DNA from: Chloroflexota bacterium
GTDB taxonomy: Bacteria > Chloroflexota > Dehalococcoidia > Lucifugimonadales > UBA3495
Assembly: GCA_028874675.1 (NCBI GenBank)
Contig: JAPPJA010000038.1
Coordinates: 1-40,000 of the forward strand
Reading direction: 5' to 3'
DNA length: 40,000 nucleotides
The notes under the pieces are model-generated. The model worked only from the letters and a program-made list of their open reading frames with translations, made no database searches and was not told the origin of the DNA. Numbering within the stretch: the first letter of the stretch is position 1; the number at the start of each line of letters is the position of its first letter. A program made the translations under genes and the position numbers. Below, in pieces: positions 328 through 23,411 of this stretch.

Positions 328-1020
328 TTGAGGGTGAATTTTCCGGGGGAGCCGGGCGAAGACGGGGAACGGGAGCGGGAGCTGCTGCTGGAATCGCTGG
401 AGCGGTACCGGCGGGGGCTGACGGACGCGCCCCTGCTGCGGAAGCGGGGAATGGGTCCGGCCGGCGGGCGCGAGGTGGTGACGGAGGAGGGCCGGAGGCG
501 GGAGAGCACCGGCAAGGACGGGGAAGGCGGCGCGGCCATGACCTTCGTCATTTCCGATGAGGAGGTGGACCGGCACGGCGACGTGGTGGTGGCCCAGGGG
601 TGGAGGCTGCAGGCCTACCGGAGCAACCCGGTGCTGCTGTGGGCCCATAACTACGGGCTGCCGGCCATCGGGCGGGCGGCGGCGGTGTGGGCGGAGCCGG
701 GGCAGCTACTGGCGCGGATGGAGTTCGCGCCGACGGGCTTCGCGCAGGAGGTGGCGGCCCTGTACCGCAGCGGGTACCAGCAGGGAGTGTCGGTGGGGTT
801 CAAGCCGCTGCGGTACGAGGAGCGGCGGGACGGGGTGACCGGAGCCTTCCTGGGCGTCCGGTTCCTGGAGCAAGAGCTGATCGAGGTAAGCGCGGTGCCG
901 GTGCCGGCCAACCGCAATGCGCTGCTGCGGGAACGGGGGCCGGAGGAGGGGAGCAAGGGAGTGACGCTGGAGGAGGTGGTTGCGGTGTTGCGGGCCCTCA
1001 CCCCCGGCCCCTCTCCCTGA
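328..1020 (+). CDS. HK97-family prohead serine protease (possibly with a charged N-terminal extension)
   Basis: FVISDEEVDRHGDVV, WAHN (His) and GVSVGFKP (Ser) motifs are typical of caudoviral prohead proteases. AAGGAGG at 314-320 lies 7 nt before TTG 328. The alternative start ATG 538 begins the protease domain proper. The last ~9 codons and the stop lie inside the repeat at 994-1030. Confidence 0.8.
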   Translation: MRVNFPGEPGEDGERERELLLESLERYRRGLTDAPLLRKRGMGPAGGREVVTEEGRRRESTGKDGEGGAAMTFVISDEEVDRHGDVVVAQGWRLQAYRSNPVLLWAHNYGLPAIGRAAAVWAEPGQLLARMEFAPTGFAQEVAALYRSGYQQGVSVGFKPLRYEERRDGVTGAFLGVRFLEQELIEVSAVPVPANRNALLRERGPEEGSKGVTLEEVVAVLRALTPGPSP

Positions 1021-1222
1021 GGGAGAGGGGGGAAGAGAGGACGTGGGTCTGGGTAGGAGAGGGGGTTGCGGGTTGGGGCCAGGGCGACCGCAAGGGTCGC
1101 CGCCACGATGGGGTGGGAAATGGCAGGGGCGGGGAACGGCCGTGCGCCCGTGACCCATACGCTCCCAACCCACATACATCCTTCCCCCCTCTCCCTGAGG
1201 GAGAGGGGCCGGGGGTGAGGGC
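994..1222. mobile_element. MITE-like 229-bp element with 37-bp terminal inverted repeats
   Basis: 994-1030 (gccctcacccccggcccctctccctgagggagagggg) and 1186-1222 are near-exact reverse complements. There is an internal hairpin ggcgacc-gcaag-ggtcgcc at 1083-1101. No coding capacity was recognised. The element sits between the protease and capsid genes. Confidence 0.6.
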
Positions 1223-1261
1223 ATCCCCACGAATTGGAACAAATTGCAAAGGAGGAGTTGT

Positions 1262-2593
1262 ATGACCCTGGGAACACAGGATATTGAGGTTATCAAGCGG
1301 GAAGTGGCGGGGATACGCGACTTTTACGCCTCGCGGATGGACTCGGAGCTGGCGCCGCTGCAGGAGGAGGTGGGGCGCATTGCCGCCCAGCTGGGACGGG
1401 TGCAGGAGCAGTGGCGGGACGGGGAACGGCGGGCGCTGCTGGCCAGGTACGGGGGCGAGGACCGGCCCCGGGTGTCCCACGGCAAGTACCGGGGAATGGA
1501 CGCCCTGTCGCTGGCCTACGTGCGCAGCGTGCTGAACGCCCAGCTGCGGGAGCCGGCGGGGCTGAACCAGCGGATGCTGGAGGACTGGCAGACCAACCTG
1601 AAGGCGGCCCTGGACAGCACCACCGCCGGAACGGGGGACGAGCTGGTGGCCACGGCCGAGGCCTCGGCGCTGTGGTCGGACGTCAACCTGGAAACGCTGA
1701 TTGCGCCCCTGTTCTCGCGGGTGGAAATGCCGACCAATCCCTTTGAGATTCCGCTGCAGCTGGGCGGCGTGAACTGGTACCCGGGGACGGAGAACACGGC
1801 GGTTACGGGAACGGCGCCGGCCACGGCCCGCCAGACCCTGACGGCCCACGAGCTGGTGGCCGAGGTCCCCTGGTCGCTGACGCTGGACGAGGACGCGGTG
1901 ATCGCCATGGCGGAGGAGGTGCGCAGTTCGCTGGTGCGCAACGCGGTGGAGGTGATTGACGACGTGCTGCTGAACGCCGACACCACCGCCGCCAACGGCA
2001 TCAACGCCGACGGGGCCACCATAACGGCCGCCACGGCGGGCAAGGGTCACTGGCTGGTGGGCTTTGACGGCCTGCTGCATCTGCCCCTGGTGGACAACGC
2101 GACGCAGGCCAACAACCACAACGCGGCGGTCAGCGACGGTATGTTCAACGAGGTCCGGGGCAAGCTGGGCAGGTACGGGGTAAGGCCGTCGGAACTGGCG
2201 TACATCATGGATGTGAGCACCTACATAAAGTCGCTGACGGTGAGCAATTTCCGCACCCTGGACAAGCTGGGGAACAACGCCACCCTGCTGCGGGGCCAGC
2301 TGGGCGCGGTGGAAGGGATTCCGGTGATCGTGTCGGAGCAGATGGCCACCGCCGATGCCGACGGCAAGGTTACCGACGGCGGCAACGCCAACACCAAGGG
2401 CCGGCTGCTGATTACCAACCGGACCCAGTGGCGGCTGGGGTTCCGCCGGGAGTTGCTGATCGAGACCACGCGGGATATCCAGAAGCGGCAGAACGTGATG
2501 GTGGTGAGCATGCGCCTGGCCTTCATGGAGCGGACGGGCAGCCGGAGCACGGCCACCCACACCGCGCTGCAGTACAACATAACCGGAGTCTAG
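1262..2593 (+). CDS. HK97-family phage major capsid protein with N-terminal delta/scaffold-like domain
   Basis: GGAGG at 1251-1255 lies 6 nt before ATG 1262. It directly follows a prohead protease gene. The N-terminus is coiled-coil-like (EVAGIRDFYASRMDSELAPLQEEVGRIAAQL). The body resembles HK97-fold capsid proteins, and the ~440 aa length is typical. Confidence 0.85.
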   Translation: MTLGTQDIEVIKREVAGIRDFYASRMDSELAPLQEEVGRIAAQLGRVQEQWRDGERRALLARYGGEDRPRVSHGKYRGMDALSLAYVRSVLNAQLREPAGLNQRMLEDWQTNLKAALDSTTAGTGDELVATAEASALWSDVNLETLIAPLFSRVEMPTNPFEIPLQLGGVNWYPGTENTAVTGTAPATARQTLTAHELVAEVPWSLTLDEDAVIAMAEEVRSSLVRNAVEVIDDVLLNADTTAANGINADGATITAATAGKGHWLVGFDGLLHLPLVDNATQANNHNAAVSDGMFNEVRGKLGRYGVRPSELAYIMDVSTYIKSLTVSNFRTLDKLGNNATLLRGQLGAVEGIPVIVSEQMATADADGKVTDGGNANTKGRLLITNRTQWRLGFRRELLIETTRDIQKRQNVMVVSMRLAFMERTGSRSTATHTALQYNITGV

Positions 2594-2607
2594 GCCATCA
2601 CGGTTAT

Positions 2608-2710
2608 TTGTCCACGAATAGACACGAATCTTCACGAATGCTGTATTCGCTTCAATTCCATTAGTGAAGACTCGTGCTCATTAGTGGATTTCGTTGTGCT
2701 CAGTGGATAA
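2608..2710. repeat. Inverted pair of 10-bp-periodic CACGAAT heptamer arrays with DnaA-box-like outer heads
   Basis: Forward: TTGTCCAC head at 2608-2615, CACGAAT at 2613, 2623 and 2633. Reverse: ATTAGTG 2660, ACTCGTG 2670, ATTAGTG 2680, degenerate units at 2690 and 2700, GTGGATAA head at 2703-2710. Confidence 0.75.
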
Positions 2711-2728
2711 AGGAGGGCGGAAAGATTT

Positions 2729-3580
2729 ATGACCAATGCCTATTGCGATTTGGCGACGCTGAAGTCGGGAGGGGCGCTGAACATCAGCGGCAGCGGCCAC
2801 GACCGGCGGCTGCTGCATCTGCTGGAAGAGGCGTCGCGGCTGATTGACGGGTACTGCAACCGCCATTTCTACGTGCTGGAGACCACGCGGCAGTTCGAGG
2901 CCAACTGGTGGTCGCCGGGGCTGCAGCAGCTGCTGGTGCCGGACCTGATCGGCGCGGACTCGGTGCGGGTGGCCGCCAAGTTCGACGGGGTGGACAGCCC
3001 GCCCGGGTGGCGGACGGCGGAGTACCGGCTGTATCCCATGGACGCGGCGCCGGAACGGGCGTGGGGACGTCCCTATACCCGCATGGCAATTGAGCCGGTG
3101 TGCACGCCCGTGTGCCGCCGGACGGACTGCCACGCCCTGGTGGAAGTGGCCGGCCGGTGGGGCTACCGGCAGGACCTGCAGGAGACGGGAGTCGCCACCA
3201 GCGCGGCGCTGGGCGCGGGGGACGCCTCGGTGACGGTGTCGGGAACGGTACCGGGAACGGAGGGGATATCCCCGGGTCAGACGCTGAGGCTGGACGACGA
3301 GCAGGTTTACGTGACCGCCGTGGCGGCGCAGGGACTGACGGTGGAACGGGGGGTCAACGGGACCGAGGCGGCGGCCCACGAGCCAGGGACATCCATCAAC
3401 GCATACCGCTACCCCGGGCCGGTATCGGAGGCGTGCCTGCAACTGGCGGTGCAGCTGTGGCACACGCGGGGCCGGGCGGCAGTCGGGGAGAATGAGGCGG
3501 GGCGTCGGCCTGAATCGTCCGGCGGCCTGGGACGAGAGGCGAAGGCGCTGGTGGCGGCCTACCGGAAGCTGGCGCTTTGA
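2729..3580 (+). CDS. Phage gp6-like head-tail connector/adaptor protein (N-terminal domain) with additional C-terminal region
   Basis: The N-terminus YCDLATLKSGGALNISGSGHDRRLLHLLEEASRLIDGYCNRHFY matches the usual pattern of gp6-like head-tail connector proteins. Its position immediately after the capsid gene fits. Confidence 0.6.
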   Translation: MTNAYCDLATLKSGGALNISGSGHDRRLLHLLEEASRLIDGYCNRHFYVLETTRQFEANWWSPGLQQLLVPDLIGADSVRVAAKFDGVDSPPGWRTAEYRLYPMDAAPERAWGRPYTRMAIEPVCTPVCRRTDCHALVEVAGRWGYRQDLQETGVATSAALGAGDASVTVSGTVPGTEGISPGQTLRLDDEQVYVTAVAAQGLTVERGVNGTEAAAHEPGTSINAYRYPGPVSEACLQLAVQLWHTRGRAAVGENEAGRRPESSGGLGREAKALVAAYRKLAL

Positions 3581-3592
3581 CGCGGGATGTTT

Positions 3593-3624
3593 TTATCCAC
3601 GAATGGGCACGAATTCTCACTAAT
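3593..3624 (+). repeat. CACGAAT heptamer array (half element)
   Basis: TTATCCAC head at 3593-3600. CACGAAT at 3598 and 3608, CACTAAT at 3618. Starts 12 nt after the stop codon at 3578-3580. Confidence 0.75.
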
Positions 3625-3638
3625 GGAACGGGGGTGAA

Positions 3639-4055
3639 ATGGCGCTGATTGAGGTGAGAGACGAGCTGGCGAGACGGCTGGGGCGGATGGAGGGAGTAAG
3701 GGTGTATGGCGAGCCGCCCGACGTGGTGACGGAATTGCCGGCAGCCATCATCCGGCCGGGCAAGCCGCTGGCGGAATACAACGGGACGCTGGCGGGCAAC
3801 GACGTGGCCTACGGCCTGGAAGCTCTGGTCCTGACCGGCTCGGGTGATGATGCCCAGGCATGGGAGGAAATGGCGGCCTTCGTGGCGCCCACGGGACCAA
3901 AGTCGGTCAAGGCGCAGGTGGAGGACGCAACGGGCGCGCAAGGAGCGGTGGACTGGTTCCGGGTGACCCGGGCCTCCGAGGGCGGACGCGTCGGCTACGG
4001 CAAGGCCAGCTACTGGGGAGTCGCCTTCCAGGTGCAGGGGTATGTGAGTGGGTAG
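3639..4055 (+). CDS. Phage structural protein, head-tail joining / tail-terminator-like (function tentative)
   Basis: 138 aa ORF, co-oriented and tightly spaced within the morphogenesis cluster. Size and position fit neck or tail-completion proteins. No diagnostic motif was recognised. Confidence 0.5.
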   Translation: MALIEVRDELARRLGRMEGVRVYGEPPDVVTELPAAIIRPGKPLAEYNGTLAGNDVAYGLEALVLTGSGDDAQAWEEMAAFVAPTGPKSVKAQVEDATGAQGAVDWFRVTRASEGGRVGYGKASYWGVAFQVQGYVSG

Positions 4056-4108
4056 GTCTGCCGACACCCACAGGGATTTCCGGGGACCGGGTAAGGAGGA
4101 GGGTATTT

Positions 4109-4552
4109 ATGGCCAAAGCGCCGGTGGCGGGTCGCAGCTACATCGAGGTTAGTGACTCCAATGGAGTGGCCCGAAACCTGTCCTCATACGTTGAGGCGGT
4201 GGAACCCCTGGGGCTGCAGGTGTCGGCGCTGGACGTTACGGGCCTGAATGACGAATCGCGGCAACTGGCCGCCGGCCCTGAGCCGGTGCAGGAGTTCACG
4301 CTGCGGGGCCTGTTCGACGATACGCCGGTGACGGGTCCGGACGCGGTGCTGGCGGGAATAGTGGGCCAGGTGGTAACGGTCAGCTACGGCCCGGCGGGCA
4401 GGGGAGCGGGACAGCGCAGAGTCACCGGACAGTTCCTCTGCCTCAGCTACCAGGTCGGCGGCAGCGTCGCCGAAGGGGGCGGGTCAGGACTGGTGAGGTT
4501 TACCGCCAGGTTCCAGCAGTCGGGGCCGGTGACCCTGGAAGTGTGGAGCTGA
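4109..4552 (+). CDS. Phage major tail (tube)-like protein (tentative)
   Basis: TAAGGAGGAGG at 4092-4102 precedes ATG 4109, an internal start of track ORF 3860..4552. The 147 aa product has a beta-rich composition. Position after the neck genes fits a tail tube protein. Confidence 0.5.
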   Translation: MAKAPVAGRSYIEVSDSNGVARNLSSYVEAVEPLGLQVSALDVTGLNDESRQLAAGPEPVQEFTLRGLFDDTPVTGPDAVLAGIVGQVVTVSYGPAGRGAGQRRVTGQFLCLSYQVGGSVAEGGGSGLVRFTARFQQSGPVTLEVWS

Positions 4553-4578
4553 AGGGTTGAATTCTTTGAGGGGAGGCG

Positions 4579-6624
4579 ATGGGGCAAATGGTCAGTCCTC
4601 GCTGGCGAATATGGGTGGATTGGAACGGCAACGGGACCTGGGGAGAGTCCAGCGGAGCCTACCGGGAAGAGGTCACGGAAGATGTGCTGGACCTGGAATG
4701 GAGGTGGGGAAAGCGGGCAGGGATTTCGGGAACCCGGCGCCGGATGCCGCCGGCCGAGTTGAACCTCACCCTGGGCAACGGGGACCAGCAGTACACCCCG
4801 GGGAATTCACAGTCGCCCCTGCACGGTCACCTGAACGCGGGGAAACGGGTTTGGGCGGCCTTCGCCTGGCCGCTGGATGACTTCCAGGGGACCAACGGCA
4901 GGGACCTGAACGGAAGGGCGGCGCCGGTGGGAGAAGGGGCCGCGTGGAGCAAGGCGTCCACCGGGCCGGCCGGCGTGGTCGTGGAGCAGGGAATGGCCAA
5001 ACCCGCCAGCGGCGGCGGCGGGGCCATCTACACCCTGGACTTCGGCGAAGCGGACGCTCACGTGGGGTTTATTTTCCGGCGCAGCAGTAACGGCGGCAGC
5101 GGGGTCGCGCTGCGGGTGGCCAGCCAGTGGGACTACCTCAGGGTGAGCTTCCGCAACGACGGCACCGTGCTGGAGGACGTCACCTTTGGCTTTCCGTCGT
5201 TCCTGCGGCGGGGAGACCCGCTGGCGGCAGACCGGGACTACTTCATCGAAATCGCCATGCACGGAAGCTCGGTGCGCCTGTTTGCCACCGACCTGAGCCA
5301 AGGCAGCGCGGACCGCAAGACTATCCTGGACGGGGGCGGCAACGCCGGCAATGCCACTGCCACCCGGCACGGCCTGTGGCACGACGGATCGGCCGCCGCC
5401 ACAGCAGACCGGTGGGGCCAGTTTGGAGGCTGGCGCAGTTTCTTCTACGGGTCGGTGGCGCGGCTTTCGCCGGAGCGGGACCCGGAACTGGGGTACGTCT
5501 GCCGGATTACGGCGCGGGACGACCTGCACCTGCTGGCCCAGTGGCCCCTGTACAACCTGTTCAACCAGTCCCCGCTTTCCACCGGCAGCCTCGCCAACAG
5601 CATCCTCACCTGGGCCGGCTTCAGCCCCAGCCACCGGCGGCTGGACCAGGGACAGACCCTGGTAGCCACTGAACCGAGGGCGATGTGGCGGATTTCGGCG
5701 GAGAGGGCGCTGGCCGGCCTGGCCGAAGAGGAGAACGGGCGCATTTACCTGGATGGGCGGGGTTATGTGCAGCTGGAAGACGCCGGTCACCGTAATGCCG
5801 GCCCCCATGCAGCGGCGCGGGTCACGCTGCGGGACACCAGCGGCTCCGGCCCCTATTTCTCCGAGCTGGTCTGGGACGACGGCAATGACGGGGTGGAGAA
5901 CTCGGTGGCCTTCCGGTATCGCCTGGCCACAAGCCGCGGCCCGCAGGAGATATGGCAGTTGCGGGATGTTCCGGCCATACCCGCCGGCGCCACCCGGGAC
6001 TTCCTGGCGGAAAGCGACAGGTACGAGGTTGTGGACTCTTTCCAGGCGCCGGCGGCCAACTCCGACTACACCGCCAACTCCCGTCCCGACGGAAGGGGTG
6101 ACGATATGACCGACAGCGTCACCGTTTCACTGCCCTACGCGCCCGGCGGCTCGCTGGCCGCGCCGTCGGACCGGTACCGGGGAAGGGGGACGGTGGTGCG
6201 GGTGACCAACGACCACGCATCGGCCACCGCCTACCTGACCCTGCTGCGACTGATGGCAGACCGGACGTATGAGGCGCCCGAACCCACCAGCTACCGGGCT
6301 GAAGACACGGCCAGCCAGTCCGCCCACGGCCTACGGGACGCGGCGGTGGAGTGCCGGTTCATCGACAACTACGCGGCGGCCCGGGTGGGAGCCGAAGCCC
6401 GGCTGGCTGACGGAAGCAGGGCCAGGGCGCGCCTGGTACTTACCCTTCCCAACGGAGGCGGCGCGAACCTGGCGCAGATGGCGCACCGGGTACTGTCGGA
6501 CCGGATAAGGGTGGTCAGCGGCAGCCCACGCGTTGATGGGGACTTTTTCATCGAGGGAATGGAAATTATTGCGCGGGCGCGTACAGGGGAAATGGTGGCT
6601 CGGTGGCTGGCGGTAGAGGTGTAG
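4579..6624 (+). CDS. Large phage tail-tip / distal-tail-like protein with a probable lectin-like (ConA/LamG-type) insertion (tentative)
   Basis: 681 aa ORF directly after the tube-like gene. The N-terminal (WRIWVDWNGNGTW...LNLTLGNGDQQYTPGN) and C-terminal (DGDFFIEGMEI) segments resemble siphovirus distal tail or minor tail proteins. The central GFIFRRSSNGGSGVALRV...YFIEIAMHGSSVRLFA looks like a beta-sandwich lectin fold. Alternative start at ATG 4588. Confidence 0.55.
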   Translation: MGQMVSPRWRIWVDWNGNGTWGESSGAYREEVTEDVLDLEWRWGKRAGISGTRRRMPPAELNLTLGNGDQQYTPGNSQSPLHGHLNAGKRVWAAFAWPLDDFQGTNGRDLNGRAAPVGEGAAWSKASTGPAGVVVEQGMAKPASGGGGAIYTLDFGEADAHVGFIFRRSSNGGSGVALRVASQWDYLRVSFRNDGTVLEDVTFGFPSFLRRGDPLAADRDYFIEIAMHGSSVRLFATDLSQGSADRKTILDGGGNAGNATATRHGLWHDGSAAATADRWGQFGGWRSFFYGSVARLSPERDPELGYVCRITARDDLHLLAQWPLYNLFNQSPLSTGSLANSILTWAGFSPSHRRLDQGQTLVATEPRAMWRISAERALAGLAEEENGRIYLDGRGYVQLEDAGHRNAGPHAAARVTLRDTSGSGPYFSELVWDDGNDGVENSVAFRYRLATSRGPQEIWQLRDVPAIPAGATRDFLAESDRYEVVDSFQAPAANSDYTANSRPDGRGDDMTDSVTVSLPYAPGGSLAAPSDRYRGRGTVVRVTNDHASATAYLTLLRLMADRTYEAPEPTSYRAEDTASQSAHGLRDAAVECRFIDNYAAARVGAEARLADGSRARARLVLTLPNGGGANLAQMAHRVLSDRIRVVSGSPRVDGDFFIEGMEIIARARTGEMVARWLAVEV

Positions 6625-12972: not shown

Positions 12973-13764
12973 TCAAAATTCGGGTTGCCGTTTCTCTTTG
13001 AATGCCTGAATTCCTTCCTGGGGATGGGAAGAGGTAGCGAAATACTGCACGAAGGCCATACCTTCCCGGTCAACTCCCGCCCGCAGCGGAAGGTCCTGCC
13101 CCTGCCGGGTGATGGACTTGATCCAGCTTAACCCGGTACGGCTCTTGCCCCGGAGCTGACCCAGTATGCCTTCCAGTTCCGCATCCAGCTGTTCCTGCGG
13201 CGCCGCCCGCAGCGCCAGGCCCCATTCCACTGCCTCGTTGCCGGAAAGCCAGCGCCCGGTGGTCAGCAATTCCATGGCCCGCGGCATGCCGACCCGCCGG
13301 GGCAGGCGCTGGGTGGAGCCGCCGCCGGGCATCAGCCCAAAGTTGGCGTGCTGGTCGCCCAGGCGGGCGTCCTCGGCGGCAAGGGTCATATCGCAGGCCA
13401 GCGTCAGTTCCAGCCCCCCGGCCAGGGCGAACCCTTGCACCACCGCGATGGTGGGAATGGGCAAGTCTTCCAGCTGGAAGAAGCATTCGTTCAGCAGCTT
13501 CACGTAGGGGGGCAAAAGGGATATCTCGTCGAATACGGTGTCGAAGAAGAGCAGGTCCGCCCCGGCGCAGAAGGCCCGGCCCTCGCCCCGGATGACCAGG
13601 GCCTTGACCGATTCGTCCTCACCCACCGCCGCAACGGCGTGGGAGAACTCCGCCAGCAGCTCCAGGTTCAGGGCGTTAAGGGCGTCGGGCCGGTTCAGGC
13701 GGATGGTGGCAACCCGGTCAGCGGTTTCAAGGATGATGTTGGCGTATTGCAAATGGGGCCTCAC
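12973..13764 (-). CDS. Enoyl-CoA hydratase/isomerase (crotonase) family protein
   Basis: ATIRLNRPDALNALN, GEGRAFCAGADL and GGLELTLACD are crotonase motifs. Start is GTG 13764 or TTG 13752. Confidence 0.9.
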   Translation of the reverse strand: MRPHLQYANIILETADRVATIRLNRPDALNALNLELLAEFSHAVAAVGEDESVKALVIRGEGRAFCAGADLLFFDTVFDEISLLPPYVKLLNECFFQLEDLPIPTIAVVQGFALAGGLELTLACDMTLAAEDARLGDQHANFGLMPGGGSTQRLPRRVGMPRAMELLTTGRWLSGNEAVEWGLALRAAPQEQLDAELEGILGQLRGKSRTGLSWIKSITRQGQDLPLRAGVDREGMAFVQYFATSSHPQEGIQAFKEKRQPEF

Positions 13765-13807
13765 GGGGGAACTGCAAACGTAGATGCGCCCGGGCGTATT
13801 CGCGGGT

Positions 13808-14191
13808 TCAAGTTTGAGCCTTTACCTCGGCATCCCGAATGTAATCTATTGTTTCTCGGACGTCGCGGTCTATGTCTTCCTCAGGTTCCAATATCCCGTC
13901 GTAGAAGCACCTGCCGTGCAGGAAGGACTGTCGGGCGGCGTAACGCAACCGCAGGGACTCAAGCGAAGGATCAAGATGTCTCAGACGTCGAATACCAAGG
14001 ACCGTCTGACCCGATGTACGCGGTTCAACGCCGGTGCGGGCAAGAATCAGCGCGTCAGTTGCCCGCTTGGTCGCTCCCCAGGCCTTGTCGGCTGCGTTCC
14101 GCATTCGGCCTTCCTCAAGCATTTCCAGGGCATCGTCATATAGCGCTCGGGCGTCAGCGAATAGAAAGCTTACTCGGTCTGTTTCCAGCAT
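13808..14191 (-). CDS. Solo HEPN-fold protein, PaREP1-like (paralog A), with Rx4H motif
   Basis: 127 aa all-helical-looking protein. AADKAWGATKRATDAL is a PaREP1-like signature. RQSFLH (Rx4H) is in the position of the HEPN catalytic motif. About 72% aa identity to 16040-16423. Confidence 0.6.
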   Translation of the reverse strand: MLETDRVSFLFADARALYDDALEMLEEGRMRNAADKAWGATKRATDALILARTGVEPRTSGQTVLGIRRLRHLDPSLESLRLRYAARQSFLHGRCFYDGILEPEEDIDRDVRETIDYIRDAEVKAQT

Positions 14192-14318
14192 ATGGCCTCA
14201 GCAACTTCAGGGTATGCCGGATTCTACACATAGGTTAGCTGACAGGAAATATCTCGGATAGCAAGGCCCTTCCCTCTTTCAATAGAGGGAGCAGGGATGA
14301 ACGCAGAATCTGAACCCT

Positions 14319-14501
14319 CCTACCGCCCCAGCATTGACAGCAGCCCCGGATGACCAGGGCCTTGACCGATTCGTCCTCACCCACCGCGGCAACGGCGTGG
14401 GAGAACTCCGCCAGCAGCTCCAGGTTAAGGGCGTCGGGCCGGTTCAGGCGGATGGTGGCAACCCGGTCAGCGGTTTCAAGGATGATGTTGGCATATTGCA
14501 A
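14319..14501 (-). pseudogene. Chimeric relic: ~30 bp of the secF 3' end fused to a duplicated 5' fragment of the enoyl-CoA hydratase gene
   Basis: 14345-14520 matches 13585-13764 plus ~20 nt upstream, nearly identical with one 9-nt deletion. 14319-14348 (ctaccgccccagc..attgacagcag) matches the secF terminus at 16559. The junction is at a gccccgg microhomology. Confidence 0.8.
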
Positions 14502-14596
14502 ATGGGGGCCTCACGGGGTTGGTGTGGAAGACTGTGGGATAGCTCCTGGTCAGTTATCAAACCGCGTTAACGCGGAGGCTGCCATAAAAAGTGACG

Positions 14597-15391
14597 CTAG
14601 ACTGCAGCCAAGTCCAACGAGCGAACGGCCTCTGTTTCGCGATGGAGAAGTTCTTCAGCTTCCCTCAAGACATAAGAGTAGAACCTCTCTTCTGCTTCAA
14701 CCGAGTCCTCTGCTTCGAGCACAGGAATTGTAGAAGCGTCTTGAAGTTGGCAATAGAGAGCATTCATTGTCTCTTTGCCCTCATGAAGTTTTTCGGTTTC
14801 CTGATTCCACTCTTCCGCATCGATATGGCCTACATATTCGTCCGATTCGGAGTTCCACACCAGGTAGGCCTTGAAAAGAACATCAGCCACCAGTCGCGGC
14901 CTGGTCTCTACCGAAGGCTGGTAAATCATTTTTATCCGAACTGCGCCAGGCCCTTCCCCGACAAATCGATACTCAACTCGGTCGTTATTTGGATCCTCAG
15001 ACAGTTCCGAGTTGCCAGATGGCACGACGTGGAGCGCAATTACTTCGGCGTCAAATGTCTCATAGATCACTCGACCGTGTTCCAGGGAAACGGTAGCCTT
15101 CTGTTGGTGAACGAAAGACTCTTGAGGCTCCAGGGGGACTTCATGGGCTTTGCGCTCCTGAGCTTCATCGTAAACAGCCTGCAGCCGGCGCCATATGTCA
15201 GTCCCATTGCCGAACAGCTTCCCTAACTCGACAGCCATTTCGGGAGTGACTCGGGATTTGCCGTTCAAGACTTGTGCAAGCGCTTCCGGAGTGACGTTGA
15301 GCTTTAGCGAGATTTCAGGGACTTCCATTCCCAGGGCGTTCATATTGGACTGAATGAGCCGGCCGGGATGGGCAGGGTACTTCATTGGCAT
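14597..15391 (-). CDS. higA: HigA-family antitoxin (XRE HTH) fused to an unrecognised ~170 aa C-terminal domain
   Basis: The N-terminal ~85 aa (HPGRLIQSNMNALGMEVPEISLKLNVTPEALAQVLNGKSRVTPEMAVELGKLFGNGTDIWRRLQAVYD) matches HigA/VapI. The gene lies 11 nt downstream of higB with a GGGGGA SD. The remainder has no recognised family. Confidence 0.8.
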   Translation of the reverse strand: MPMKYPAHPGRLIQSNMNALGMEVPEISLKLNVTPEALAQVLNGKSRVTPEMAVELGKLFGNGTDIWRRLQAVYDEAQERKAHEVPLEPQESFVHQQKATVSLEHGRVIYETFDAEVIALHVVPSGNSELSEDPNNDRVEYRFVGEGPGAVRIKMIYQPSVETRPRLVADVLFKAYLVWNSESDEYVGHIDAEEWNQETEKLHEGKETMNALYCQLQDASTIPVLEAEDSVEAEERFYSYVLREAEELLHRETEAVRSLDLAAV

Positions 15392-15402
15392 TTGGTATCC
15401 CC

Positions 15403-15681
15403 CTAATGGTAGTCCACGTAATCTACATCAGTAACATTACTACCATCGAATCGAAAGATAATCCGCCAGTTGCGACTTACCATCACGGACCAGAACCCGC
15501 TCAAAGGCCCACTGAGAGGATGAAGCCGGTAGCCGGGCTGATCCATCTCCGCAGCTCTCTCTGCCGTATCAAGCAGGGTTAGTATTTCTTCAATCCTTGC
15601 AATGTGGTTGGCTGGCAGCCGCGCCCGGTCTCCTCGCTCAAACAGATGCTCAAGTCTGCGGCTACGGAACCCTATTATCAT
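15403..15681 (-). CDS. higB: HigB toxin (plasmid maintenance system killer, RelE/ParE superfamily)
   Basis: LEHLFERGD..., GYRLHPLSGPLSGFWSVMVSRNWRIIFRF and DVDYVDYH closely match the HigB consensus. A TATAAT (minus strand, 15698-15693) lies just upstream of the ATG. Confidence 0.9.
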   Translation of the reverse strand: MIIGFRSRRLEHLFERGDRARLPANHIARIEEILTLLDTAERAAEMDQPGYRLHPLSGPLSGFWSVMVSRNWRIIFRFDGSNVTDVDYVDYH

Positions 15682-15746
15682 GCTTTCAGAGAATTATACA
15701 GCCATGCGAAAAATATCGGGTTCATTTCGCGAGACCGCGAGACCTG

Positions 15747-15921
15747 CTACCTCCCCAGCAGCCCCAGCATTGACCGCAGGCCCGTGGCAGCGGTGGCGCC
15801 AACTCGGCGGCCCCGACCTATGATGCGGCCAAATTCGCCCCGCTCCCAGATGACCACGAACTGGCTGGCTATGAAGATTGAACTGTAGGTACCCACGATC
15901 ACGCCGATGGCCAGCACCAGG
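15747..15921 (-). pseudogene. Duplicated 3' fragment of secF (~175 bp)
   Basis: Aligns with 16559-16735 with roughly a dozen mismatches by eye and includes the stop codon. No 5' part is present. Confidence 0.85.
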
Positions 15922-16039
15922 ACGGTCTTGACTACTCAGGCAGGAAGTCTGCGTTCTGGTTACGCCCTTGCGCCCTTGAATTCGATCCATGGGCTTTCCC
16001 TGTCAAAGGCCAGGATATCGGCAAATTCCTAGTCAGTCA

Positions 16040-16423
16040 TCAAACTTCGGCCATTGCCTCGGCTTCCCGAATGTAATCCAGGGTTTCGCGTACGTCAGCA
16101 ATGATGTCGTCCTCCGGCTCCAGTATGCCGTCGTAGAAACAGGCGCCGTGCAGGAAGGATTGGCGATGTCCGTATCGCAGTCGCAAAGGTTCCAGGGCCG
16201 GGTCCTGCCTTCGCAGCTGCCGGATCATGCGCATGGTCTGCCCGAAGGTGCGTGGTTCCTCGCCGGTGCGGGCCAGCATCAGCGCGTCCGTGGCCCGCTT
16301 GGTCGCTCCCCAGGCCTTGTCGGCTGCGTTCCGCATTCGGCCCTGGTCCAGCATTTCCAGGGCGTCCTGATACAGATCACGGGCATCCGCGAAGAGGTAA
16401 CTTACTCGTTCGGTTTCCAGCAT
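16040..16423 (-). CDS. Solo HEPN-fold protein, PaREP1-like (paralog B), with Rx4H motif
   Basis: Same length and architecture as 13808-14191. Conserved AADKAWGATKRATDAL and RQSFLHG motifs. Confidence 0.6.
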   Translation of the reverse strand: MLETERVSYLFADARDLYQDALEMLDQGRMRNAADKAWGATKRATDALMLARTGEEPRTFGQTMRMIRQLRRQDPALEPLRLRYGHRQSFLHGACFYDGILEPEDDIIADVRETLDYIREAEAMAEV

Positions 16424-16502
16424 AGGTTCTCAAATGCGACAGGATACGCCATATTCTACAGGTATCCTGCTGCAACACGAAACATCTTGGAACACGAGGT
16501 AA

Positions 16503-16531
16503 GGGCCCCTCTACCAGTGAAAGAGGGGCCC
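16503..16531 (-). terminator. Hairpin downstream of secF (candidate terminator)
   Basis: gggcccctct/agaggggccc 10-bp stem with a 9-nt loop, 28 nt after the secF stop. The trailing U-tract is weak. Confidence 0.45.
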
Positions 16532-16558
16532 GGTGCAAGCCTCGAATTTTGAAGGTTT

Positions 16559-17560
16559 CTACCGCCCCAGCAGCCCGAAGATTGACAGCAGGCCCGTGGC
16601 GGCGGTGGCGCCGGCGCGGCGGCCCCGACCGATGATGCGGCCGAATTCGCCCCGCTCCCAGATGACCACGAACTGGCTGGCTATGAAGATGGAACTGTAG
16701 GTACCCACGATCACGCCGATGGCCACCACCAGCAGCAGTTCACGGATGCTGGAACCGCCAATGAGGAGCATGGCCAGCAGCACCGTAAAGGTGGTGAAGC
16801 TGGTGTTGATGGACCGGCCCACGGTCTCCACGATGCTCAGGTTGACCACCGTGTCCAGGGCCCGGTCCGGGTAACGAATGACGTTCTCGCGGATGCGGTC
16901 GAAAATTACGATGGTATCGTTAACGCTGTAACCGGCCACGGTGAGAATGCCCACGATGAACATGGAGTTGACCTCCATGTTGAGCACGCGGCCCAGGATG
17001 GAGAACACGCCCAGCACCAGCAGGGTGTCGTGGATGAGGGTAAGGATGGCGCTGATACCGTAGCGGTAAGCCCGGGGCACCCGCCGGAAGGCATACCAGA
17101 TATACAGCAGGATGAACACCGAGGCCGCCGCCAGCGCGATTATGGCGTTGCGCACCGTTTCCTGGGCCACGATGGGCGAAGTGGAGTCGAAGTTGACGGC
17201 CAGCACCGGGGCCACATTCTGAGTAAGGTCGTCTTCAATTACCTGGCGCTCGGACTTGCCCCCGCCGGCGTCCTCGCTGAGCACCTTGGTACGGACCAGG
17301 AGCGTGCGGCTGCCGGTGCGCTGAATCAGGGCCTCGGGATGGCCCAGAAATTCCATGCGCTGCTGCACCTCGTCCTGGGACACGGACCTTTGAAAGGTAA
17401 TGTCCATGACGGAACCGCTGGTGAAGTCGATGCCCGGCCGCAGCCCGGAACCGCCGGTAACCCACCCGCCCGGGGGCAGGGCCAGTGAGAGTATTCCGGG
17501 AATCAGGAGCAGGGCCGAGAACAGGAAATACCAACCCCGCTTGCCTACGATGTTATACAT
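16559..17560 (-). CDS. secF: Protein translocase subunit SecF
   Basis: Typical SecF topology and motifs (DFTSGS, NDTIVIFDRIREN). GGAGG precedes the ATG. Located downstream of secD. Confidence 0.93.
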   Translation of the reverse strand: MYNIVGKRGWYFLFSALLLIPGILSLALPPGGWVTGGSGLRPGIDFTSGSVMDITFQRSVSQDEVQQRMEFLGHPEALIQRTGSRTLLVRTKVLSEDAGGGKSERQVIEDDLTQNVAPVLAVNFDSTSPIVAQETVRNAIIALAAASVFILLYIWYAFRRVPRAYRYGISAILTLIHDTLLVLGVFSILGRVLNMEVNSMFIVGILTVAGYSVNDTIVIFDRIRENVIRYPDRALDTVVNLSIVETVGRSINTSFTTFTVLLAMLLIGGSSIRELLLVVAIGVIVGTYSSIFIASQFVVIWERGEFGRIIGRGRRAGATAATGLLSIFGLLGR

Positions 17561-22210: not shown

Positions 22211-22717
22211 TCAGCCCGCGGGCGGGTTGAAGGGCGGCATGGGCGGGGGAAAGTCCATGCTCTCGTCAGCCCGGGCCACTTCCTCGGGAACGAGCAGGCG
22301 GTTTATGATGCGCTCGCGTGAGGGCGCAGCCGAATAGTCGATATTCGGCCCGTGTTCCCTGATCTCCCATAGCCTTTCGATGAACCGTGATACGTCGGCC
22401 ACAAGCTGGTGCAGTAGAGGGTCTGTCAGTCGATCCTCGTAGTAGTTTTCGTGAAGCTGGTCGGCGATGGCCTGCAGATGCCTGAGTTCCGGCTGGTCGT
22501 ATTCATCCGCCAGCAAGTCAACAATTTCCCGCCGCAGGTTGTGGGAACTGTGGCGCCAGTTCCGGTCCTCCGCGATGGCTTTGACCGCCTGGGCCACCGC
22601 CCCGGAAGCCTTGTCCGACGCCTGCACGCGGTCTCCCTGCGTGTGCAGTTCGTAGTTGGCCTGTTCCAGCAGGCGGCGGCTCAGTTCCGCGTGACGATTG
22701 GCGTTGGCCAGGGACAT
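22211..22717 (-). CDS. PaREP1/HEPN-like helical protein, tandem paralog 1 (168 aa)
   Basis: QASDKASGAVAQAVKAIA and LHENYYED signatures. The start was chosen by collinearity with the paralog at 22905-23411 (MSLANANRH vs MSLVNANRH). Conserved proline-rich tail DESMDFPPPMPPFNPPAG. Confidence 0.6.
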   Translation of the reverse strand: MSLANANRHAELSRRLLEQANYELHTQGDRVQASDKASGAVAQAVKAIAEDRNWRHSSHNLRREIVDLLADEYDQPELRHLQAIADQLHENYYEDRLTDPLLHQLVADVSRFIERLWEIREHGPNIDYSAAPSRERIINRLLVPEEVARADESMDFPPPMPPFNPPAG

Positions 22718-22904
22718 GGTGGTAACCGCTGTTCCAGTGGGATGCGCTGGGTCTGCTCTCAATGCAGTGTAACCAGCGCCGGTGGGGCAAGTCCATACAT
22801 AGCGTGGTGATGCTTATAGGGGGGTTGGTCGGTGGCGGGCCCTTTGGCCGGGCTTCGGACGAGGGCGCCAAGGGGTGTGGGGAAACCCCTGGGCCCGCCT
22901 GGCC

Positions 22905-23411
22905 TCAGCCCGCGGGCGGGTTGAAGGGCGGCATGGGCGGGGGAAAGTCCATGCTCTCGTCAGCCTGGGCCACGTCCTCGGGGACGAGCAGACGGCCGAT
23001 GATGCCTAGCTGGTCCGGCGATGGAATAAACTCTGGGTCAGGGCCTTTCTCCCTTACAATCCATAGGGATTCAATGCGCTCGGTGATTTGTCCCAACAGG
23101 TAGGCGACAAGCACATCGCTCATCCGGTCCTCGTAGTAGTTTTCGTGCAGTTGATCGGCTATGCCCTGCAAGTTCACCAGGTCCGGCACATCGAACTCGC
23201 TGGCAATGAGCCCCACAATCTCCCGCCGCAGGTTGTGGGAGCCGTGGCGCCAGTTCCGGTCCTCCGCGATGGCCTTCACCGCCTGGGCCACCGCCCCGGA
23301 AGCCTTGTCCGACGCCTGCACCCGGTCTTCCTGCGTGTGCAGTTCGTAGTTGGCCTGTTCCAGCAGGCTTCGGCTCAGTTCGGCGTGGCGATTGGCGTTG
23401 ACCAGGGACAT
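22905..23411 (-). CDS. PaREP1/HEPN-like helical protein, tandem paralog 2 (168 aa)
   Basis: Same length as paralog 1. Near-identical N-terminal ~67 aa and C-terminal ~28 aa, with a divergent central ~70 aa. Confidence 0.6.
   Translation of the reverse strand: MSLVNANRHAELSRSLLEQANYELHTQEDRVQASDKASGAVAQAVKAIAEDRNWRHGSHNLRREIVGLIASEFDVPDLVNLQGIADQLHENYYEDRMSDVLVAYLLGQITERIESLWIVREKGPDPEFIPSPDQLGIIGRLLVPEDVAQADESMDFPPPMPPFNPPAG

Follow-up and report, generated by a model that had tools for sequence, protein, structure and literature searches.

A stacked array of PaREP1 (HEPN) and higBA cassettes between secF and ech in a sponge-associated SAR202 lineage, with secF and ech fragments at its junctions

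Here, we describe a compact array of small genes in a 40,000-nucleotide (nt) stretch of DNA from a Chloroflexota bacterium (Dehalococcoidia; Lucifugimonadales), which corresponds to positions 1 to 40,000 of contig JAPPJA010000038.1 in assembly GCA_028874675.1 and is referred to as the window throughout. The array occupies the interval between secF and the enoyl-CoA hydratase gene ech and, read along the minus strand on which all of its features lie, runs in the order secF, hairpin, PaREP1-B, 5′ remnant of an AlbA_2 gene, 3′ copy of secF, higB, higA, 5′ copy of ech, short secF relic, hairpin, PaREP1-A and ech. A preliminary description had noted three minus-strand modules in this interval, each accompanied by a copy of the secF 3′ end, and all of these elements proved to be in place with only small corrections needed. 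Gene calls were available for the metagenome scaffold ROBB21-1_SAMN13943214_METAG-scaffold_1478 in ENA, which has the same coordinates as the window; proteins of the window are also found in an NCBI Chloroflexota MAG with OXN21_ locus tags. Loci and contigs of related genomes or assemblies that were compared with the window are designated by L-numbers (such as L002 and L083); a scan for SecF in species-representative genomes yielded 77 loci, the closer of which all belong to Dehalococcoidia/SAR202 metagenome-assembled genomes (MAGs), several of them sponge-derived according to their record names.

The two borders of the array are intact core genes, which also provide its homology anchors. The upstream flank is secF (16559-17560; Pfam SecD_SecF_C, E 2.6e-51), whose product shares 85-99% amino acid identity with its counterparts in more than 20 related Dehalococcoidia/SAR202 MAGs, and the downstream flank is ech (12973-13764; ECH_1, E 4.8e-55), which is followed by rdx and tmk in a synteny that is also found in L002, L003, L005, L007-L012 and L020. 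An exact-protein look-up with the 263-residue reading of ech found no record. The first module begins with a 135-nt secF-PaREP1 intergenic region of B type (16424-16558), which contains a conserved promoter-like block and, by folding, a terminator-like hairpin with a 10-bp G+C-rich stem (hairpin B, 16503-16531). It continues with PaREP1-B (16040-16423; 127 residues, HEPN fold, motif RQSFLH; PF05942, 33.9 bits against a cut-off of 24.4) and a 118-nt remnant of the 5′ part of an SLFN_AlbA_2 gene (15922-16039), which comprises about 44 codons interrupted by stops. The remnant meets the secF 3′ copy (secF′, 15747-15921), which corresponds to the final 175 nt of another secF allele and keeps the stop codon, at a junction designated J1 (15907-15921), where alignment reveals the imperfect microhomology CTGGTGCTGGCCAT.

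The second module consists of higB (15403-15681; RelE-like toxin, PF05015, E 8e-17) and a higA-like antitoxin gene encoding 264 residues (14597-15391; TIGR02607, E 7e-18, above its cut-off, residues 3-78), so that the higBA pair lies at 14597-15681 as first described. It is enclosed by two spacers of the higBA-type allele, one between secF′ and higB (15682-15746), which is 82% identical to the secF-higB spacer of L010, and one of about 76 nt between higA and the ech copy (14519-14596), which is homologous to the higA-ech spacer of L008; a terminator-like hairpin site lies at the end of higA (14619-14595). The lower G+C content that had been noticed for this segment was borne out (48-55%, versus 60-68% in the flanks). 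Beyond it, alignment with native ech identifies the first approximately 160 nt of that gene within a 170-nt stretch (ech′, 14349-14518), which is connected at junction J2 (14343-14349) to a secF 3′ relic (14319-14348). The relic covers the last approximately 30-39 nt of secF up to and including its stop codon and shows a gap of 9 nt when aligned with the native gene. The third module then comprises a secF-PaREP1 intergenic region of A type (14192-14318), which is 100% identical to L002 9711-9837 and 87.5% identical to the single-cassette allele L092, with hairpin A (14267-14296), and PaREP1-A (13808-14191; 127 residues, HEPN fold; PF05942, 33.5 bits against the same cut-off of 24.4), which is separated from ech by 43 nt.

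The duplicated flank fragments are far beyond chance similarity, given BLASTN E-values of 2e-69 for secF and 7e-76 for ech. Over 174 nt, the secF 3′ copy matches the native end (16559-16732) with 93% identity and differs from it at 13 nt, in agreement with the dozen or so mismatches originally counted. These differences amount to six synonymous and five non-synonymous codons with the frame and stop intact, the non-synonymous ones lying mainly in the variable C-terminal tail, so that secF′ should have diverged at least partly while functional, and the pattern is more in keeping with an allele in use than with the decay of a local duplicate. The repeat of ech and its 9-nt deletion were also found as previously reported, but the copy (14345-14518 with the junction overlap) additionally carries two substitutions and a 1-nt indel, and its homology begins 4 nt before the GTG at 13764, or approximately 16 nt before the TTG start chosen by gene callers, rather than about 20 nt upstream. 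Only the window strain has the 9-nt deletion in ech′, which is not present in L083 or L084. The 118-nt segment behind PaREP1-B had previously been read as a spacer, and its identity as an AlbA_2 remnant is new in this analysis: it shows 54.5% identity over 44 residues (TBLASTN, E 8e-5) to a 201-residue protein of L002 that matches PF04326 (E 3.5e-11), and its ATG overlaps the stop codon of PaREP1-B.

Recognition of this remnant means that J1 and J2 have the same topology, in which 5′ sequence of a gene lying downstream abuts 3′ sequence from secF. At J1, alignment of the window, L083, L087, L002, L085, intact AlbA_2 genes and native secF indicates an imperfect microhomology of approximately 14 nt between AlbA_2 (GTCCTGGCNATGGCCA) and secF (CTGGTGGTGGCCAT). 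The window, L083 and L084 share one and the same sequence at J2, GGTCATCCGGGGC|TGCTGTCAATGCTGGGGCGGTAG. The relic and its joint at a GCCCCG(G) overlap were confirmed here, but of the 4-7 or so G+C-rich nucleotides of this overlap, only approximately 4-6 can be demonstrated to be shared. No core sequence is common to J1 and J2, and the secF copies are unequal in length and starting point (approximately 232 or 175 nt versus approximately 39, 30 or 21 nt). The blocks of the array are bounded by secF 3′ and by ech 5′ sequence, the other border being a novel joint at a microhomology, and both junctions look illegitimate, that is, formed by short microhomology between non-homologous sequences.

The array is real and inherited, and not an assembly artefact, as independent assemblies from other samples carry the same junctions. 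Contig L083 (sample ERZ25069412) is collinear with window positions 18436-11432 at 98.3% identity with 102 mismatches; it comes from another sample and thus represents a different strain that possesses the whole array. From a different study and sample, L087 covers secF to higA and L084 covers ech′ to ech, with identities of 97.7% and 98.2%, respectively; contig names of the form ctgN_Nx_l presumably reflect the output of a long-read assembler. Overall, J1 recurs in L083, L087, L002, L085 and L094, and J2 in L083 and L084. An 88-residue chimeric open reading frame spanning J2 has an exact match only on the source scaffold, and the support for J2 comes instead from contigs carrying PaREP1-A. 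Scans of JGI metagenomes with an exact J2 pattern and a degenerate J1 pattern gave no match, and the lineage of the window is probably missing from the collection scanned.

Comparison of the ech-secF interval in related genomes revealed a highly polymorphic site rather than one fixed arrangement. Directly after secF, we found PaREP1 followed by ech in L009, L011, L012, L020 and L092; higBA followed by ech in L003, L005 and L008; higBA followed by PaREP1 in L010; PaREP1 followed by a partial higBA in L007; AlbA_2 together with a gene encoding a 244-residue protein in L023; and PaREP1 with an N6/N4 methylase gene, in some cases fused to an Mrr-type nuclease domain, in L004, L006 and L093. In more distant SAR202 genomes, the neighbour after secF is an AP_endonuc_2/Zincin_1 gene pair. 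The cassette borders in related species coincide with the secF stop codon and the ech start, and the spacers on either side of the window higBA match alleles of L010 and L008. The secF-ech gap is thus a multi-allelic cassette site in the sponge-associated SAR202/Dehalococcoidia lineage. When ten related loci were searched with their own secF end and their own ech start, flank-fragment scars were found only in L002, and hence the scars are specific to a lineage and not general to the site.

Phylogeny of the PaREP1 proteins separates the two copies of the window: PaREP1-B groups with those of L012, L010, L020, L007, L009 and L011, and PaREP1-A with those of L092, L066, L093 and L075. Both clades contain genes located directly after secF, and both occur in genomes that are equally close to the window by SecF identity. 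Judged from these sequences, PaREP1-A and PaREP1-B are two old allele lineages, and the stacked alleles are foreign to each other. The estimate of 70-75% identity between the two modules was reasonable (75% at the nucleotide and 77% at the protein level), and, as was already argued from it, a simple recent tandem duplication is rejected, considering the protein identity and the separate old clades.

Four forms of the array could be distinguished. The W form is that of the window, L083, and L087 with L084. The S form, in L085, carries PaREP1-B and the AlbA_2 remnant, then a secF′ reduced to 51 nt fused to its final 21 nt, and then hairpin A, PaREP1-A and ech; it has no higBA. The L002 type, also without higBA, is like the S form but has a complete AlbA_2 gene and the gene for the 244-residue protein between PaREP1-A and ech. 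In the L094 type, two tandem units, each composed of secF′, hairpin, PaREP1 and the AlbA_2 remnant, and two J1 junctions are followed by a 176-nt secF′, higBA and full ech, and J2 is absent. The L094 units are mosaics: a PaREP1 body of A type ends in a tail of B type, and a hairpin region of A type precedes a gene of B type. The register of J1 differs slightly among the S, W and L094 forms; deletions of 57 nt between the copies of an imperfect 14-nt direct repeat in secF connect these registers. Across the forms, the secF′ copy in the middle of the array has lost its interior in three distinct ways. In addition, the secF 3′ copy of L094 (4014-4195, compared with 5470-5651) is 97% identical to its own native end, versus 93% in the window, suggesting that gene conversion continues or that the repeats exchanged sequence more recently.

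Taken together, we consider it probable that the array consists of alternative alleles of one site, which an illegitimate joint together with homologous recombination in the secF or ech flanks brought into a stack and which were subsequently remodelled, with no integrase involved. The suggestion of repeated recombination between strain variants, one of two that had been offered for this locus, is supported by the finding that every block in the stack is an uninterrupted part of an allele that other genomes hold alone at the site, and by the separate old clades of the PaREP1 copies. In addition, the added modules test as horizontally acquired alleles by their separate PaREP1 clades, by the matches of higBA to L010 and L008, and by the synonymous-rich divergence of secF′. 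As to the recombination pathway, the order of events and the delivery of DNA, cassettes would normally be swapped by homologous recombination in the conserved flanks, whereas in the lineage of the window alleles would have been added and not replaced, in at least two events that each comprised one microhomology-mediated illegitimate joint and homologous recombination in a flank. The likely starting point would be a resident secF-higBA-ech allele, which is plausible because L094 preserves higBA followed by full ech. J1 would then have joined the 5′ part of AlbA_2 to the secF 3′ end, placing secF, hairpin, PaREP1-B and the AlbA_2 remnant ahead of the resident secF′-higBA-ech. In the W lineage, J2 would have joined ech at +160 to secF at -39, placing the relic, hairpin, PaREP1-A and ech behind higBA. 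The incoming DNA may have been a 0.75-0.9 kb fragment of another strain's allele with short pieces of the flanks, circularised at a microhomology and inserted by a single crossover; alternatively, a fragment of the same size may have been captured by homology-facilitated illegitimate recombination, and the topology of J1 and J2 is that expected under either route. The direct repeats thus created (secF/secF′ and ech/ech′) could have given rise to the sister forms through unequal crossover (L094) and deletions (S).

Several competing explanations were weighed against this reading. Considering that the window is a metagenome scaffold, that strain variants of the locus do exist, and that for run SRR10996926, from which contigs 100% identical to the window were obtained, the Logan unitigs end within the repeats (L081 covers 15913-14463), an assembler might have concatenated coexisting variants of one locus. 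Such an error is extremely improbable, however, as the whole array is collinear on a contig of another sample at 1.7% divergence, both of its halves recur in a third study (L087 and L084) and J1 also occurs in L002, L085 and L094; furthermore, the junction k-mers join non-homologous sequences at overlaps of 4-14 nt, which a de Bruijn graph cannot make without supporting reads. Serial site-specific integration into an attachment (att) site in the secF 3′ end, each module bringing a secF terminus that replaces the original, in the manner of integrative elements at tRNA genes, was the other suggestion of the preliminary description, and it would account for the secF-end copy on the secF-proximal side of every module as well as for tandem accretion at one site, which is typical of that process. 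It did not withstand comparison with the sequences: the secF copies measure 232 or 175 nt versus 39, 30 or 21 nt with different starts and no constant att core, J1 and J2 are without a common core, and their distal partners are fragments of AlbA_2 (118 nt) and ech (160 nt) rather than element DNA. In addition, the modules are only 0.5-1.3 kb in size, their genes all encode PaREP1, HigB or HigA and no recombinase, and single-cassette species have no secF duplication. The reported absence of integrases and transposases was also upheld, as no called gene of the 40-kb scaffold has a Pfam match of either type. Scans of the window for tRNAs and Rfam families gave no match, and hence there is no att site of the tRNA/tmRNA type. 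We regard site-specific integration as very improbable.

An integron-like array without an integrase (a cluster of attC sites lacking integron-integrases, CALIN), with the hairpins as attC-like sites, is a further possibility that deserves hardly any credence. Chromosomal integrons hold toxin-antitoxin cassettes, and the cassettes considered here are likewise small, co-oriented and rich in toxin-antitoxin genes, with hairpins between some of them. Nevertheless, the hairpins are conserved with compensatory changes after the secF stop codon in single-cassette genomes and behave as a secF terminator, no such hairpin lies upstream of higBA, the module borders are core-gene ends and gene fragments rather than hairpins, and no IntI was found on the scaffold. 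Greater weight is due to an in-situ tandem duplication by illegitimate sister-chromosome exchange, followed by allelic replacement of the interior of one copy through double homologous recombination with foreign DNA, although we still judge it rather unlikely. The topology of J1 and J2 is exactly that of a tandem-duplication joint, L094 contains two tandem units that end at the same J1 and are mosaic for A and B, and allelic replacement is clearly frequent at the site. On the other hand, each stacked module would require two events and an unstable intermediate with perfect repeats of 0.75-0.9 kb, and the 7% divergence of secF′, rich in synonymous changes, fits import better. This explanation has the same ingredients as the stacking of imported alleles in another order, and sequence alone cannot separate the two.

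Some observations weigh against the stacking of imported alleles as formulated above. The array is based on assembled contigs and not on reads, and the donor genomes are unsampled, the nearest relative of PaREP1-A outside the arrays being 86% identical. Classical homology-facilitated illegitimate recombination produces an insertion with a deletion and does not duplicate the anchor, so that the circular-intermediate route or a duplication followed by replacement may be the true one. The S forms retain 51 nt of secF′ that are absent from W, so that the proposed order of events has to assume either independent 57-nt deletions or another ancestor. Moreover, L010 (higBA then PaREP1) and L007 (PaREP1 then partial higBA) combine the same cassettes without scars, and therefore stacking does not always leave flank fragments. 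Finally, several genes of the scaffold have no Pfam match, and an unrecognised recombinase is possible.

A more speculative extension, to which we assign a low probability, would be that the flank fragments serve as portable arms of homology, through which each module becomes a cassette that RecA can mobilise. When secF recombines with secF′, or ech with ech′, a circle with one arm would be looped out, and this circle could re-insert by a single crossover into related genomes. If this were true, the site would be a recombinase-free, integron-like capture-and-shuffle array for defence and toxin-antitoxin genes in sponge-symbiont populations, and the four forms (W, S, L002 and L094 types) in co-occurring strains would be snapshots of the shuffling.

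Conservation across species extends to the stretch from secF to PaREP1, together with the hairpin and the promoter-like block that it contains, and compensatory changes occur in the hairpin stem. Both hairpins lie directly after a secF stop codon, and they are found there in single-cassette genomes as well, away from the module borders. From their position, fold and cross-species conservation, the two hairpins are terminator-like and appear to behave as the secF terminator. A promoter and terminator scan of the window reported no promoter of sigma-70 type and did not flag the two hairpins, neither of which is followed by a T-run. The promoter-like block upstream of PaREP1, TTCCGAGATATTTCGTGTTGCA...TGTAGAAT, lies at 16424-16500 on the minus strand of the window and is also present in L007, L009, L011, L012 and L020. 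In the PaREP1-B copy, a near-perfect palindrome, GGATACGCCATATTCTACAGGTATCC, overlaps a -10-like TAGAAT and may be a putative operator.

The earlier designation of the two 127-residue proteins as HEPN-like was well founded, in that both match PF05942 and the fold is recovered by structure. An AlphaFold2 model of PaREP1-A is all-helical with a pLDDT of 94.9, and its best Foldseek matches are the HEPN structures 2hsb, 2q00 and 3o10, with TM-scores of 0.67-0.77; the structure-based search succeeded where a sequence search of the PDB with PaREP1-A gave no match at E ≤ 1. The Rx4-6H motif is present as RQSFLH; among 22 members of the family, H92 does not vary and R87 hardly does. It has been reported that classical archaeal PaREP1/8 proteins keep the histidine of this motif but not the arginine (PMC3710099). 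On the basis of sequence and model, both PaREP1-A and PaREP1-B are assigned to the PaREP1 family of the HEPN superfamily, with a full Rx4H motif that is predicted to be catalytic. The family of 127-residue proteins is large and uniform, with 1983 matches at E ≤ 1e-5, and nearly all of those listed are 127 residues long and 72-86% identical. No MNT antitoxin gene is found next to either PaREP1 copy, the neighbours being the secF terminator region, the AlbA_2 remnant and ech, and the PaREP1 genes are therefore not to be classed as HEPN-MNT toxin-antitoxin modules. The window contains two further PaREP1-family genes in tandem, located between priA and def on the minus strand (22211-22762 and 22905-23411; 168 residues according to the scaffold calls); these paralogues are 24-26% identical to the 127-residue proteins and, like classical PaREP1/8 proteins, keep the HEPN histidine without the arginine.

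The arrangement of higBA is that of a type II HigBA system, in which the gene for the toxin HigB directly precedes that for HigA with a gap of 11 nt. The product of higB shares 94.6% amino acid identity with the L010 copy that lies directly after secF. PDB matches of HigA are confined to residues 5-85, consistent with a canonical N-terminal HigA helix-turn-helix domain (approximately residues 3-85), and the C-terminal extension of approximately 185 residues has no match in Pfam, NCBIfam, PADLOC or PDB sequences. This atypical long form of HigA (264 residues in the window) is kept in every higBA allele at the site (L003, L005, L008, L010, L019 and L074; 52-77% amino acid identity). A PADLOC scan of all six cassette proteins gave no match.

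Other gene combinations were also observed at the site. The SLFN_AlbA_2 gene (201 residues) and an overlapping gene for a 244-residue protein form another cassette type (L002 10230-11566 and L023 9034-10364), and in the B-type unit the start codon of AlbA_2 and the stop codon of PaREP1 overlap as ATGA, which hints at a PaREP1-AlbA_2-244-residue protein operon that may be an undescribed defence module. PaREP1 after secF is followed by an N6_N4 DNA methylase gene in L004 (10299-11942), L006 (9525-10598) and L093 (5388-8299), the methylase being fused to an Mrr_cat/NA-iREase1 nuclease domain in L004 and L093; in L093, a gene for a 382-residue protein of no assigned family lies in between. Considering these methylase and nuclease neighbours, the HEPN genes adjoin restriction-modification-like genes at the same hotspot.

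The rest of the scaffold is of housekeeping character, including priA, def, cca, secD, secF, ech, tmk, pdxS, pdxT, dnaA and obg. The dnaA gene lies at approximately 32.9-34.2 kb of the window, about 16 kb from the array, and from this distance the array locus is probably close to the replication origin. At the start of the contig, directly before pdxS/pdxT, a phage- or gene-transfer-agent-like set of head-tail genes occupies positions 328-6624 on the plus strand, its left end running off the contig. It encodes a prohead protease (Peptidase_S78), an HK97-type major capsid protein, a head-tail adaptor, a tail terminator, a major tail protein and an unassigned 681-residue protein, and no integrase was seen in this set. 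It could be a prophage remnant or a gene-transfer-agent-like cluster, whose only demonstrated relation to the array is its place on the same contig.

Most bacterial transfer hotspots lack mobile-element genes, and the mechanism by which they change is usually inferred only statistically. At the locus described here, the joints are preserved, and the combination of scars, single-cassette alleles and rearranged forms constitutes a record at the level of junctions, which shows an uncultured symbiont gaining and stacking small defence and toxin-antitoxin genes without an integrase. The locus also draws attention to a very conserved 127-residue HEPN protein with a full Rx4H motif that is linked to secF across SAR202, and to its recurrent neighbours, namely AlbA_2 with the 244-residue protein and the methylase-Mrr fusions. 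With respect to mechanism, the array is a new example of a known process and introduces no new principle.

Tandem integrative elements at the 3′ ends of tRNA or protein genes likewise leave repeated copies of the target-gene 3′ end between insertions; in contrast to them, the present array has no integrase, no constant att core and no element-sized inserts, and the distal partners of its junctions are fragments of neighbouring genes. Homology-facilitated illegitimate recombination is reported to involve a junction microhomology of 3-10 bp, and circularisation with a single crossover is an alternative fate of linear DNA (PMC3240628; PMC2884548). Both processes resemble what is proposed here in having one homologous end, one microhomology joint and inserts on the kilobase scale, and the circular route also duplicates the homologous segment, as would apply to ech′/ech and secF′/secF. 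Unlike the process as defined by experiment in transformable or conjugating model bacteria, the pathway at this locus is read from scars only. In integrase-free transfer hotspots between core genes, turnover has been attributed to homologous recombination in the flanks (Oliveira et al. 2017, PMC5635113). The secF-ech interval is similar in being a variable spot between core genes with defence- and toxin-antitoxin-rich content and no mobile-element genes, whereas it differs from that model of clean replacement in that flank-fragment scars record additive events with illegitimate joints.

The closest analogues appear to be the strings of orphan toxin-immunity modules in Rhs and contact-dependent inhibition (CDI) systems and the T6SS (type VI secretion system) orphan immunity arrays in V. 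cholerae, for which a model of an anchor plus an illegitimate joint was proposed and clean double homologous replacement was found to be commoner (PMC5361080). As in those arrays, modules appear to have been acquired successively at one locus, with displaced 3′ fragments of an anchor gene between them and neither an integrase nor a specific site; there, too, the proposed mechanism has a homologous anchor on one side and an illegitimate joint on the other, and simple replacement is commoner in related strains. The differences are that the anchor here is the housekeeping gene secF and not a polymorphic toxin, that the modules are free-standing HEPN, toxin-antitoxin and AlbA_2 cassettes instead of toxin tips with immunity genes, and that the duplication also extends to part of the downstream flank, ech, in a host that is an uncultured sponge symbiont.

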